From Candidatus Fraserbacteria bacterium (GTDB taxonomy: Bacteria; Bipolaricaulota; Bipolaricaulia; RBG-16-55-9), in the NCBI GenBank assembly GCA_037442925.1, contig JBBIPG010000031.1, positions 1-27,630 of the forward strand: 27,630 nt of DNA. Direction: 5' to 3'. The notes under the pieces were generated by a model. That model was not told where the DNA came from, did no database searches, and worked only from the letters and a program-made list of their open reading frames with translations. The position numbers and the translations under genes are program-made. Positions 16,816 through 21,256 of this stretch are shown in pieces; position 1 is the first letter of the stretch, and every line of letters starts with the position of its first letter.

Positions 16816-17253
16816 TCAACTGGAAGCGCTGGACAAGGAGCCCTGCTGAGGCGTGCCGTAGATGGCTCCGACGACTGCGCCGTAGATCAGATGCCCCATC
16901 AGACTGCCCATCACCAGAAGGAAGGCATTGGGGGCATTCGAGGTGAAGAGCCCCATGCCCATCATCGGCATGATAACCACTTGGGCGACAACGAAGGGAA
17001 ACAGGCCATAGAGAGCGCCTTTCAGCCATGGCGTCCCCGGCAGCCAACTCACGAAACCGTAGGCGTAGAACAAGGCTAAGATCATTCCAATCATGAAGTG
17101 AGCTAGCCATCCAATCAGAATGGAAGCGCCCATGAAACTGCTGAGCATAGCCGGGATATCCATGGGCAACCCCATAACCCCGGCCATCATGGTCAATAGA
17201 GTCATCACGATCGTCCCGATCAATCCTGCCAGAATCGCTTTACCCGCATTCAT
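16816..17253 (-). CDS. Met/Gly-rich 4-TM membrane protein, paralog of 10344-10748
   Basis: Start MNAGKAIL with SD AAGGAG; GWLAH, KGALYG and GSLMGHLIYG. Confidence 0.8.
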   Translation of the reverse strand: MNAGKAILAGLIGTIVMTLLTMMAGVMGLPMDIPAMLSSFMGASILIGWLAHFMIGMILALFYAYGFVSWLPGTPWLKGALYGLFPFVVAQVVIMPMMGMGLFTSNAPNAFLLVMGSLMGHLIYGAVVGAIYGTPQQGSLSSASS

Positions 17254-17285
17254 AGAACTCCTTTCTCTCGTTCCTCCCGTCGTCG

Positions 17286-17639
17286 CTAAAGTGTGATCAG
17301 CGTGTAGCCTTCTTGGACGAGCTTGGCCACGCTGGGATGACCGCCGTACTCGGCGTGGAATGGGATACCGGCCTGGGCAATCTCGTTCTTGACTTGAAAC
17401 GCCTGTGCGCAATAATCACAAGCCCCCCCAATCAAGCCTGATTTCTTGACCTCTTGATAGAGCTTGTGATACTTGTGGTCGGGCTTTTCGAACTCCCGGA
17501 CCCATGTCGTGCCTGCCCCGTCGAAGATCAGCCGGACCTGATGACCAGCCTCTTTAAGATCCTTGGAGTAGAGAAGCCCATGGACCGCCCGGCCCATGTC
17601 CCCCGGCTGTGCGTGCAAAATGACTGCGAATTTCGCCAT
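17286..17639 (-). CDS. DsrE-like protein, paralog of 11641-12006
   Basis: LIFDGAGT, GACDYCA and GHPSV; SD GGGAGG. Confidence 0.8.
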   Translation of the reverse strand: MAKFAVILHAQPGDMGRAVHGLLYSKDLKEAGHQVRLIFDGAGTTWVREFEKPDHKYHKLYQEVKKSGLIGGACDYCAQAFQVKNEIAQAGIPFHAEYGGHPSVAKLVQEGYTLITL

Positions 17640-17684
17640 CGTGCCCCTCCCTTTCGACATTCATTAGTTGAGTTGAGTAGACGA

Positions 17685-17727
17685 ATCGTACTTCACCTTG
17701 AACCCTAAGACTGTAAGTGTGCTTACA
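17685..17727 (-). promoter_or_regulatory. Operator copy 6 (17712-17727) with -10 TACGAT (17690-17685)
   Basis: TGTAAGTGTGCTTACA, 21-bp gap on the minus strand. Confidence 0.78.
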
Positions 17728-17748
17728 AAGCCTGAAAGACTTTGAGGT

Positions 17749-17777
17749 TTGACAAGGGCCCTACTCTCATGCATAAT
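17749..17777 (+). promoter_or_regulatory. Sigma70 promoter TTGACA-N17-CATAAT for aroF-tyrA
   Basis: Near-consensus hexamers with a 17-bp spacer. Confidence 0.8.
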
Positions 17778-17806
17778 GGGCCCACTCTTCAGATGAGGTG
17801 ATGATA

Positions 17807-17935
17807 ATGCTCAAAGGTGATCGGCTTTGGCTGCAACAGGCAGTCACAGCTTGCAGGACGGCAGTTCTCTCCTCTTTCCACCTCCTCTCCTCTCGCTTCC
17901 CCTGGCGAGTTTGCCGCTACCCCTATAGCGCCTGA
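17807..17935 (+). CDS. 0-frame leader ORF of aroF (42 aa, MLKGDRLWL...)
   Basis: SD GAGGTG at 17795-17800, ATG 17807, stop TGA 17933-17935; codons 7-8 are CTT TGG. Confidence 0.7.
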
Positions 17936-18812
17936 GGCGCTTCCAACCAAGTCCAATTCCGCACCTGCTTCACTGGAAACTCAGAGTAGCGAACAGTTTA
18001 GACTAGCCAGCCGTCGGTCCCGTCCGCAGGACACGATTGTTGATGTGAAGGGCGTGAAAATCGGCGGCGAGGAGCTGGTGATCATGGCCGGGCCGTGCTC
18101 CGTGGAGAACGAGTACCAGATCCATACGATTGCGCAGCTGGTGGCCGAAGCAGGAGCCCGAATCCTGAGGGGTGGCGCTTTTAAGCCCCGCACGTCACCG
18201 TACAGCTTCCAAGGCTTGGGCCAAGAGGGGTTGAAACTGCTACGAACTGCTGCGGATGAGAACGATCTGCTGGTCATCACAGAGGTCTTAGATGTCCGCC
18301 AGATCGATCTGGTCGCCCAGTATGCCGACATCCTGCAGATTGGTGCGCGCAACATGCAGAACTTCGCACTGCTCAAAGAAGTGGGACTTACCCATCATGC
18401 TGTGCTCCTCAAACGAGGGATGGCTGCTACGGTGAACGAGCTTCTGATGGCTGCAGAATACGTGTTGTCCGCAGGGAACTCGCGAGTGATCCTCTGCGAA
18501 CGGGGGATCCGAACCTTCACGGACTACACACGCTTCACGTTGGATGTCGCAGCCGTTCCCGTTGTGAAGAGGCTCTCGCATCTACCCATCATTATCGATC
18601 CCAGCCACCCCGCAGGGCGACATGAGAACGTCATTCCGTTAGCACTGGCCGGGATTGCTGCCGGCGCAGACGGGTTGATCGTCGAAGTCCATCACAATCC
18701 CGAATGTGCTTTGAGCGATGGCCCTCAGGCGCTTCGACCCGAACAGTTCAGGCAACTCGTCGGAAAAGTTTCCGCCATGGCAGCCGTCTTGGGTAAGAAG
18801 TTTCTCGCGTAA
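17807..18812 (+). CDS. aroF: DAHP synthase type I-beta; predicted 334 aa via a +1 frameshift at 17825-17830 (ORF track start GTG 17817)
   Basis: [37 protein letters not shown] and DPSH. GTG 17817 has no properly spaced SD, and the next in-frame GTG lies inside the core. Confidence 0.9.
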
Positions 18813-18817
18813 ATGCT

Positions 18818-19720
18818 ATGGCTCGACCACGCACGCCTAGAAGAGTTACGATCGTAGGTGTGGGTCTGATGGGCGGCTCTCTGGGCATGGCCATCCGGCG
18901 ATGCTGCAAGGGCGTCGAAGTGATCGGCGTCGATCGGGAAGAAGCGACTCTCCAGCAGGCCCAAGAGCGCGGGGCCATCGATTGGGGTACACTGGATCTC
19001 GAGCAGGGCGTGGCCGAGGCGAATCTGGTCTTCTTGGCTACACCGATTCGGGTTATTTTGGAACTCTTGCCCGCTCTAGCAGATGGTATCGCGGAGAAAG
19101 CGATCGTCTCCGATCTGGGTTCGACAAAACTGCAAATCTGCCTTGCCGCAAAGAAGCTACTGCCCGAAAACTTCGTGGGCGGACATCCGATGACCGGCTC
19201 CGAGCGTCAAGGCATCGAAGCAGCGGACCCTTTCTTGTTCGAGAACGCGGTCTATCTCCTCACTCCGCTACGCCCTGGCGATGATAAGGCTGAGAGACTC
19301 GCGGCCTTTTTGGAGCAACTGGGGTGTTCGATAGTCTGCATAAGCCCGCAGCGGCATGATCGCTTGGTAGCCCACGTCAGCCATCTACCACAGCTTTTGG
19401 CAGTGGCTCTGGCAGACTTCATTGGGGAAAGGGCCGAAGCCGACAGCCTATACAAAGAATTGGCTGCCGGAGGCTTGCGAGACATGACCCGCATTGCGGC
19501 CTCGCCCTATGAGATCTGGCAGGACATTCTGATCACAAACCGGGATGAGATCGAGCAAGCCATGCAGGCATTGTTGTCACGGCTGCAAGACAGGTGTTGC
19601 ATCAGAGAAGAAGACGCTTGGCGCGAGAGGTTCGCGCGGGCAGCGCGCTTTCGCGCCGCGTTTCCTCGGCAATCGAAGAGCTTGGTTGACGCGTCCCACA
19701 CCGAGGGATATAATCAGTGA
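18818..19720 (+). CDS. tyrA: Prephenate/arogenate dehydrogenase
   Basis: VGVGLMGGS, SDLGSTK, GGHPMTGSE, HD...VSHLP and RDMTRIA. Confidence 0.93.
   Translation: MARPRTPRRVTIVGVGLMGGSLGMAIRRCCKGVEVIGVDREEATLQQAQERGAIDWGTLDLEQGVAEANLVFLATPIRVILELLPALADGIAEKAIVSDLGSTKLQICLAAKKLLPENFVGGHPMTGSERQGIEAADPFLFENAVYLLTPLRPGDDKAERLAAFLEQLGCSIVCISPQRHDRLVAHVSHLPQLLAVALADFIGERAEADSLYKELAAGGLRDMTRIAASPYEIWQDILITNRDEIEQAMQALLSRLQDRCCIREEDAWRERFARAARFRAAFPRQSKSLVDASHTEGYNQ
19686..19714 (+). promoter_or_regulatory. Sigma70 promoter TTGACG-N17-TATAAT inside the tyrA 3' end, driving the trp operon
   Basis: Hexamers at 19686-19691 and 19709-19714. Confidence 0.8.
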
Positions 19721-19748
19721 ACTCGTACACACCGGAGGGTGATTCAAC

Positions 19749-19817
19749 ATGAGAAGATTCTCAAGAAGACTCTCAAAGGGTGAGTATCTTTGGCTCTCCT
19801 CGTTCCGTTGTATCTAG
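19749..19817 (+). CDS. 0-frame leader ORF of trpE (22 aa, MRRFSRRLSKGEYLWLSSFRCI)
   Basis: SD GGAGGGT at 19734-19740, ATG 19749, TAG 19815-19817; codons 14-15 are CTT TGG. Confidence 0.7.
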   Translation: MRRFSRRLSKGEYLWLSSFRCI

Positions 19818-21256
19818 GCACAACCCCGCCTCAGGCCGTCCTTCCTCCCGTCGTGATGTGCCCATAGCTCGTTCCAAAAGCCATCTCATCATACGAGAGA
19901 TCCCCGCTGTGGAGCCCTTTGCGCTCTATCGCCGCTTGCGGAATCGTACTGGAGTCAGCTTTCTCTTAGAGAGTGCTCCGGGACCAAAACGCTTGGCACA
20001 GTTCACCTTCATCGGGTTTGACCCTGTGAGGGTCTTTGCTCTACAGGATGGAGTGCTGTTCGTCGACGGGAAGCGCAGAGACAGGCTTTGGTCGTCCGGT
20101 CAATTTCCTACGAGACACGCTTGCACAGCATCAGCCTTTCACTAGGGCAGAAGTCCCTTTTCTTAGCAGATTCAGCGGTGGCCTCGTTGGCTACTTTAGC
20201 TATGACTTCGTACACCATCTAGAGAGGCTGCCGGAGCCTACTCCACCACGCTCCTCCTTTCCGGACTTCGAGCTGGGCCTCTATCTCGATGGCATCGTCT
20301 ATGATCATCACCGCCATCGCGCCCATTATTTTTCTCACAGTGAGGATCGATCCCACGTTGTGATGGAAGCTCTAGCTGATCCCACTCCCTCTCCGGCCCG
20401 TCTTCGCGTCGATCGCTTTGAGTCCGACATAACTCAGCAAGAGTTCTGCGCGAGTGTCGCGCACGCCAAAGCGCACATCCAGTCCGGTGATATCTATCAA
20501 GTTGTGCTCTCCAAACAGCTAACGGCACCCTATGACGGCGACCTGCTCTTGTTTTATGAGCTGCTCCGTCGGATCAACCCATCACCCTATATGTTCCATT
20601 TGGATTTCGGCCCGCGCGTGATCTCCGGCAGTAGCCCAGAGATGCTCGTCTCCGTCCAAGGGAATCTCATCACGACCTATCCCATTGCGGGGACGCGCCC
20701 ACTCGGACGGAACGCCAAAGAGCGGAAGCGCTATGCTCGCGAACTCTTGAGGGACGAAAAAGAGCGTGCGGAACACGCGATGCTGGTCGATCTGGCCAGA
20801 AATGACATCGGGCGCGTGGCAGAATACGGCAGTGTACGTGTGCCCGAATACATGCGGGTGGAGTCTTTCAGCCATGTTCAGCATCTGGTCTCTCGCGTTG
20901 ACGGGTGCTTGCGAGCAGGTCTGGACGCCATCGATGCGTTGGCTGCGCTCTTCCCTGCAGGAACGGTGACAGGAGCACCCAAACCGCGTGCCATGGAGAT
21001 CGTCAACAATCTGGAACGGAGTCCCCGGGGCCCCTACGCCGGTGCTGTGGGCTATCTGTCGCTCAACGGCCATCTGGACACAGCCATCACGATTCGTACG
21101 CTCTTTGCAGATGCTCACGCCCAAAGACTCTTCCTGCGCGCCGGTGCCGGCATCGTCTGCGATTCCGTTCCGAAAAGAGAGTGGGAGGAAACCGAACGCA
21201 AACTCGAAGCCATGAAAGTCGCCCTAAAGGGAGCTGCCTCATGCGCGTTCTCGTGA
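19749..21256 (+). CDS. trpE: Anthranilate synthase component I in three successive +1 frames (predicted 501 aa with shifts at 19788-19793 and 20086-20091)
   Basis: FLLESAPG..FTFIGFDP lies in ORF 19780-20145. FSGGLVGYFSYD, GDIYQVVLS, NPSPY, SSPE, PIAGT, EHAMLVDLARND and PAGTVTGAPK lie in ORF 20036-21256. Confidence 0.88.

Follow-up and report, generated by a model that had tools for sequence, protein, structure and literature searches.

How does translation enter the aroF gene at the head of an aromatic amino-acid operon of a Candidatus Fraserbacteria bacterium, when the start codon served by the upstream Shine-Dalgarno (SD) sequence opens a different reading frame? The window, that is, the whole stretch of 27,630 nucleotides analysed here, is contig C31 of a 2.07-Mb metagenome bin (~15x depth) and carries the genes in the order aroF-tyrA-trpE-G-D-C-F-B-A. 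Public annotations of aroF conflict, one giving 331 residues counted from GTG 17817 and another, for a near-identical copy, 242 residues counted from Met 90.

The aroF leader and its reading frames

The features on which the argument rests are these:

17749..17777, + strand: sigma-70-like promoter, TTGACA-17-CATAAT (11 of 12 matches)
17795..17802, + strand: Shine-Dalgarno sequence GAGGTGAT, serving the leader start (GAGGTG at 17795-17800)
17807..17935, + strand: leader ORF, 0 frame, 42 codons plus TGA 17933-17935; the peptide begins MLKGDRLW
17816..17824, + strand: GGTGATCGG, an SD-like 9-mer abutting the shift codon and holding the +1-frame GTG 17817 (annotated aroF start)
17825..17830, + strand: proposed +1 shift site, CTT (P site) at 17825 and TGG (A site, the putative sensor Trp codon) at 17828
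17829..18812, + strand: aroF frame entered by the proposed shift (327 codons plus TAA), with a low-complexity linker as far as ~17996 before the core of a type I-beta DAHP synthase
18818..19720, + strand: tyrA, prephenate dehydrogenase (PF02153 and PF20463)

The initial annotation had described a promoter at 17749-17777 and, 6 nt upstream of an out-of-frame ATG at 17807, an SD motif GAGGTG leading into a 42-residue ORF. The promoter is present and the remainder can be read directly from the sequence. Counted from the end of the GGAGG register, the distance from SD to ATG 17807 is 8 nt, which falls at the peak (4-10 nt) of the SD-to-start spacings in the organism's own genome. The leader frame differs from that of the enzyme, which has a TAA at 17805-17807. 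We also confirmed that GTG 17817 stands 16 nt past GAGGTG and is the sole enzyme-frame ATG, GTG or TTG before codon 77 (GTG 18045). With a spacing of 18 nt in the GGAGG register, at the background of the genome, this GTG is a poor independent start, in agreement with the earlier view that aroF has no credible start of its own. Entry through the upstream ORF, which is real and conserved, is the best reading. The sequence AGGTGATC (17815-17822), which overlaps the GTG, is complementary to the 16S 3' end GATCACCT, and that 3' end is canonical. The six residues MIGFGC encoded from GTG 17817 were considered as a lipoprotein or signal sequence and rejected by eye.

That the enzyme frame stays open across a low-complexity linker holds, whereas the idea that the 42 codons form a dual-coding overlap does not; a specific candidate shift site lies seven codons into the leader instead. 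Since the stretch 17827-17928 is polypyrimidine and has no stop in any of the three frames, open frames alone are no proof of dual coding. By codon usage, a coding signal is absent from every frame before ~17990 (near zero, versus 0.37 per codon in the core). The leader peptide contains the aromatic residues listed earlier (F24, F31, W33, Y38, Y40) and also W8; the relevant sensor codon would be that of W8, not the later F/F/W/Y/Y. The aromatic-rich tail may be a by-product of a CU-rich linker read one base off. In the 0 frame this tail also holds CCC TGG (17900-17905) and CCC TAT (17921-17926), both CCC-U contexts; that they offer further chances of +1 entry at Trp and Tyr codons, and with them a tyrosine input, is pure speculation. 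Repeats of the (G/U)AG type bound by TRAP were rejected, only about four being found by eye.

The enzyme is a type I-beta DAHP synthase: PF00793 covers residues 74-314 of AroF, NF006421 and TIGR01361 score above their cut-offs, and homology to other DAHP synthases begins at residues 55-63. Residues 1-57 are rich in Ser, Pro, Ala and Thr. The 58 codons of the linker contain no ATG, GTG or TTG, the +1 frame is open up to the core, and GTG 17817 lies upstream of it. The Pfam search found no FL/ACT or chorismate-mutase domain at the N-terminus, as had been noticed from the sequence, and AroF thus belongs to the unregulated subclass of type I-beta DAHP synthases, which has the DAHP_synth_1 barrel without an FL or CM domain. 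A second DAHP synthase of the genome (contig C53:10760-11572, L023), 67% identical, keeps an N-terminal ferredoxin-like regulatory domain (PF18152), so that the organism has one allosteric isozyme and one domain-less isozyme. Because the former retains PF18152, the earlier suggestion that translational control substitutes for allosteric feedback in AroF is plausible.

P0033, a DAHP synthase with 60% identity to AroF and likewise annotated from MIGFGC, has an N-terminal extension homologous to the one here (BLASTP E 9e-9; none of 2000 shuffles reaches the score). The two have a stretch ..PIAPxALPT.. in common, and the linker of P0033 is longer and otherwise diverged. The closest homologues, P0004 (86%) and P0005 (80%), have annotated starts at positions 74-75; for these two and for P0033 the comparison was of protein sequences. 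An M-[IV]-x-F-G start occurs in none of 33 further DAHP synthase homologues. A metagenome scan for the extension in the DNA of relatives gave nine loci with no close relative among them; in a scan of genome contigs with the N-terminal alignment, none of 102 pattern matches was confirmed; a phylum search with the first 82 residues returned noise, and with P0004 nothing nearer than the window itself; a word search on residues 1-60 returned the query alone. Across 17444-17791 and 17826-17945, hot-spring contigs from two other studies are nearly identical to the window; they leave gaps at 17792-17825 (the cassette) and 17948-18001. In two hot-spring runs the flanks are 99-100% identical, yet there are 35 differences in 18027-18267 and 15 in 18300-18377, which suggests that the 5' half of aroF is mosaic or recombinant in a related strain, or that organisms are mixed.

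Recurrence of the cassette and its likeness to prfB

We tabulated 17 cassettes: those of the window's own aroF and trpE, that of aroF in genome G009, and those that precede trpE in a further 14 relatives. As the genomes under comparison are kin, the counts that follow overstate independence. In all 17, an SD lies 4-9 nt before the leader start, the A-site codon is TGG, the enzyme occupies the +1 frame, and a GTG of that frame stands at the position equivalent to 17817. In the P site, 13 have CTT and four GTT, although only 12.2% of Leu codons are CTT. The leaders span 9-17 codons, the 0-frame stop follows 3-34 codons later, and a peptide motif K/x-G-[DGE]-x-[LV]-W is common to the aroF leader and the other 16. 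Across about 510 codons of enzyme-frame linker there are five start-like codons, none with an SD. Further copies in the phylum start at GTG or TTG.

The cassette is confined to a particular set of genes. Among 41 genomes searched, 16 had a trpE match, and in 15 of these it lies directly before trpE; in the sixteenth, G035, it precedes a TrpB-like gene 1.7 kb upstream of trpE. A search of 184 phylum genomes with a strict 15-mer, GGTGATCGNBTTTGG, gave 80 matches in 60 genomes, versus two matches for a reversed control. We examined 56 of the 80 matches: 15 precede trpE, 14 trpS, 12 TrpB-like genes and two aroF (in this window and in G009), and the remaining 13 are incidental and have no SD/start leader. 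Three of the 14 trpS genes were tested with NCBIfam TIGR00233 and three of the 12 TrpB-like genes with NF009057, and all six scored above cut-off; for seven of the TrpB-like loci the upstream ORF alone was seen. Given a single Trp codon and cassettes only before Trp-related genes, we argue that the Trp codon is the sensor.

Fusion of the +1 frame to the enzyme is not universal: the aroF of G009 has its own start, and of the 14 loci with trpS behind the cassette (L162, L164-L172, L179-L182) roughly half possess an in-frame ATG immediately ahead of the conserved N-terminus. In G009 (L027, G009:C50 1200-1545), the leader reads MIRSGDRVW and a promoter-like TTGACA-17-TATACT stands at the same place; an 85-codon +1 ORF ends at a TAA two codons before the SD and ATG of aroF itself, an arrangement that points to coupling rather than fusion. 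The 0-frame tail of this leader, 42 residues long, is aromatic-rich like that of the window's aroF and contains a CTT TTC (Leu-Phe) site. In the TrpB-like class, a conserved +1 upstream ORF of ~48 codons ends in ..FFPEQLEPAW about 90 nt before the start of the gene, which has its own SD and start. The CU-rich end of this ORF might mask the SD of the gene (L143-L159, L183). Since neither G009 aroF nor the TrpB-like class has a fused +1 ORF, the output must in those cases be coupling or unmasking.

Within the 2.07-Mb genome, the strict scan returned the aroF and trpE leaders only. A third exact GGTGATCGGCTTTGG (C2:15608-15622, minus strand) follows an ATG (..VRGDRLW) without an SD, and its +1 frame closes after six codons; lacking an SD, it was set aside as a chance match or relic. 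CTTTGG in a frameshift-like layout occurs 11 times, versus ~4.3 expected; ten of these are ordinary gene starts and trpE is the sole split gene. Ordinary genes of this genome do not avoid CTT-TGG (57 observed versus 49 expected), which indicates that the dipeptide alone is not strongly slippery.

The cassette resembles the frameshift signal of prfB, the gene for release factor 2 (RF2), in the same phylum. The prfB of this organism (contig C26, minus strand, ~20430-20500, L102) is split in the manner known from textbooks and carries the signal GTC GGG GAT CGC CTT TGA C, and its ORF1 ends ..VGDRL. All 30 phylum prfB loci have GA[TG] NNN NTT TGA with RF2 in the +1 frame. Their consensus is GGTGATCGC CTT TGA C, while the 17 trp/aro cassettes have GGTGATCGG CTT TGG C; common to both groups are the 9-mer GGTGATCGN, the spacing and G-D-R-L. 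In G036 the unusual GTT is found in both prfB and the trpE leader, with 19 of 23 bases identical. The RF2-type features present are a short ORF1 with its own ribosome-binding site, a CUU followed by U, and an SD-like element at a fixed distance; the A-site UGA is absent and replaced by UGG in 17 of 17 cassettes, which makes the cassette a variant, not a member, of the RF2-type class. The published prfB logo is given as AGGGGG, 3 nt, CTTT (PMC12421855); here the SD-like element lies 7 nt from CUU (GGAGG register), not 3 nt, and in this it matches the phylum's own prfB. GGTGA stands at the equivalent position in most phylum prfB cassettes (T in 20 of 30 loci) and gives the same +1-frame GTG, which can be read as a by-product of the SD-like motif.

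Two sites at trpE

The window contains a second cassette before trpE and a third site inside the gene, both of them absent from the initial annotation:

19734..19817, + strand: second cassette, before trpE, with SD GGAGGGTGAT at 19734-43, ATG 19749, GGTGAGTAT at 19779-87, CTT 19788 and TGG 19791
19792..20088, + strand: N-terminal part of TrpE, in the +1 frame with respect to its leader; a linker precedes Anth_synt_I_N positions 3-57, which include the LLES motif
20086..20091, + strand: third site, internal to trpE, GAC AGG CTT TGG; the Pfam profile resumes in the +1 frame
20090..21256, + strand: main frame of trpE, the rest of Anth_synt_I_N and Chorismate_bind; trpG, D, C, F, B and A follow, to 26238

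The trpE leader, located in the tyrA-trpE spacer by a regular-expression scan, has 22 codons up to TAG 19815-17 and a peptide ..KGEYLW. Downstream of it, trpE is split over two frames, Pfam Anth_synt_I_N positions 3-57 lying in one and 63-138 in the next. When the frames were compared with TrpE of five relatives, homology extended to ..VDGKRRDR in the first frame and began from RPVNFLRD... in the second, and a shift placed at CTT|T gives gap-free collinearity with all five; in G036, for example, the residue count from VDGK to RP is equal. The junction, GAC AGG CTT TGG, closely resembles the GAT CGG CTT TGG of the aroF leader, and at both places +1 is the productive frame. The internal site lacks GGTGAT, and GAC MGG stands before CTT TGG instead.

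The nearest related genus, represented by G006 (TrpE 69% identical), has the same leader cassette and an internal site CGA GAC CGG CTT TGG, at which no start codon is available in the new frame. The conservation of the internal site in G006 excludes an assembly error. A required +1 shift at CUU UGG is thus hard to avoid for a full-length trpE product, judging from the frames, and full-length TrpE would need two such shifts, one in the leader and one internally, with the same double arrangement in G006.

A proposed mechanism, its alternatives and its relatives

From the anatomy of the cassette, its conservation, its frame relations, its identity with the prfB signal and its restriction to Trp-related genes, all read directly from the DNA, we infer a ribosomal shift at the site, at a rate set by the supply of Trp-tRNA and with a role for the SD-like element. 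The segment 17795-17830 is probably an RF2 (prfB)-type programmed +1 frameshift cassette with UGG in place of UGA, which would make aroF and trpE responsive to Trp-tRNA. Ribosomes would bind the strong SD, start at ATG 17807 and read M-L-K-G-D-R-L until CUU occupies the P site and UGG the A site. When Trp-tRNA is plentiful, UGG would be decoded, the frame kept and translation stopped at TGA 17933, yielding a useless peptide of 42 residues. When Trp-tRNA is scarce, the A site would stay empty and the peptidyl-tRNA-Leu would slip from CUU to UUU, a slip that the upstream GGUGAUCGG, able to pair with the 16S 3' end, would aid. Reading would then resume at GGC 17829 in the aroF frame and continue via the linker into the domain-less DAHP synthase. 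The same device would gate trpE twice, at the leader and then internally.

Could AroF instead start independently at GTG 17817, as M-I-G-F-G-C, with the ORF of ATG 17807 merely competing or tuning and no frameshift at all? This GTG is the sole canonical in-frame start before the core, P0033 is annotated from the same residues, and the GTG recurs at that position in all 17 cassettes; the conservation of the enzyme frame past the leader stop (..PIAPxALPT..) further indicates that the frame is translated, and leaves the route of entry unspecified. However, the GTG has no SD, the leader SD lying 16 nt upstream here and farther in the other cassettes, against a genome peak of 4-10 nt, and it is embedded in a well-initiated ORF. 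Its recurrence in the phylum's prfB cassettes weakens the case from conservation, if it is a by-product of the GGTGA motif there too. Stalling at a hungry UGG would place the ribosome over the GTG, so that regulation would have the wrong sign. An independent start also leaves unexplained the conserved in-frame Trp codon, the invariant CTT/GTT, the early 0-frame stops and the restriction to Trp genes, and at the internal trpE site of G006 there is no start codon to use. We consider this explanation, the main rival, unlikely.

It is something of a long shot that the leader senses Trp by stalling or nascent-peptide arrest without any change of frame, acting via RNA structure, sequestration of an SD by the CU tract, or access of Rho to the C-rich linker. 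G-D-R-L-W is kept at the peptide level despite base differences (GAC AGG versus GAT CGG), the predicted fold pairs the SD GAGGUG with CACCUC at ~17880 in both the MFE and centroid structures, and the unfused +1 ORFs of the TrpB-like class and of G009 aroF need a structure or coupling step. Yet shuffled sequences fold as well as 17784-17950 and 17784-18060 do (z -0.23 and +0.50), no + strand terminator was found in 17200-18400, and an Rfam covariance scan of 17600-18200 gave a single chance-level match (E 0.95) and no T-box; nor does stalling explain the uninterrupted +1 frame between site and core wherever fusion occurs, the identity with prfB, or the internal trpE site. Barely credible, finally, is the idea that the TTT run was misassembled or misread, or that the genes are decaying pseudogenes, with the true aroF and trpE each in one frame. 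A +1 shift at CTT|T does equal the loss of one T, and ~15x is the depth of the metagenome bin to which the window belongs; but genomes of other genera that were assembled independently (G006, G009), and other relatives as well, show this frame relation, trpE is the sole real split gene among the 11 CTTTGG layouts of the genome, and the contigs from the two other studies are nearly identical over 17826-17945.

The frameshift cassette can be set beside several known systems. Leader-peptide attenuators of amino-acid operons, such as trpL, pheL and Corynebacterium aroR-aroF, are alike in that a translated leader with codons for the end product reports the supply of charged tRNA; they differ in that the cassette has one Trp codon rather than a run, no terminator/antiterminator, and a proposed frame change as its output. 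T-boxes on trpS and trp genes of Firmicutes follow the same regulon logic, with trpS, trp and aromatic genes responding to the charging of tRNA-Trp, whereas here there is no T-box or other Rfam family and sensing would take place in the ribosomal A site, not in an RNA-tRNA complex. Sense codons placed in the RF2 window have been used to measure the selection rates of aminoacyl-tRNAs. The nearest system is prfB, which likewise combines a short ORF1 that has its own start, a CUU_U site, an SD-like element at a short, constant distance before it and a protein in +1, and in which the rate of frameshifting is set by the slowness of decoding of the A-site codon (PMC5009743, PMC12421855). According to a review of recoding from 2016, no other RF2 shift site comes close to CUU_U in efficiency, an SD-like stimulator is a major feature, and a short zero-frame ORF can serve as both sensor and effector (PMC5009743). 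The cassette differs from prfB in that its A site is the sense codon UGG, so that Trp-tRNA rather than RF2 would be sensed, in a loop of biosynthetic feedback rather than autoregulation; in addition, its ORF1 contributes no conserved part of the protein, the product carries a variable low-complexity linker or is coupled via one, and trpE needs two shifts.

Hungry-codon shifting and the Ty1 site CUU_AGG_C are alike in that a P-site tRNA-Leu on CUU slips +1 beside a slow sense codon in the A site, and different in that those cases arise in the laboratory or adventitiously, or else require a rare tRNA. Starvation-induced frameshifts count as well studied in E. coli, and their natural use as unclear, in the 2016 review (PMC5009743); the frameshifting in pheL of E. 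coli was considered incidental (PMC5009743; PMC3082878). Our literature search, which covered work outside subscription journals, found no published description of the cassette.

With some reserve, we are inclined to a broader reading, in which bacteria of the Bipolaricaulota type turned the RF2 signal, UGG taking the place of UGA, into a portable sensor of Trp-tRNA that needs neither a regulatory protein nor a riboswitch, and placed it before trpE, trpS, TrpB-like genes and, here, a domain-less aroF. If the cassette is such a sensor, AroF would be a translationally Trp-controlled isozyme, and its copy of the switch would extend control from the Trp branch to the common entry of the aromatic pathway, on an enzyme without a regulatory domain. 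The window would then hold three sites in series, and the output of TrpE, as the product of two shift frequencies, would respond steeply. The annotation conflicts, with aroF at 331 or 242 residues and trpE apparently split, would be accounted for. The prfB control present in the same genomes makes the hypothesis directly testable. If real, this would be a natural case of hungry-codon frameshifting controlling amino-acid synthesis, and a third route, beside attenuation and T-boxes, by which a cell reads the charging of a tRNA. With only the ribosome and ~40 bases of mRNA involved, it would also offer a very compact amino-acid-responsive switch for engineering.
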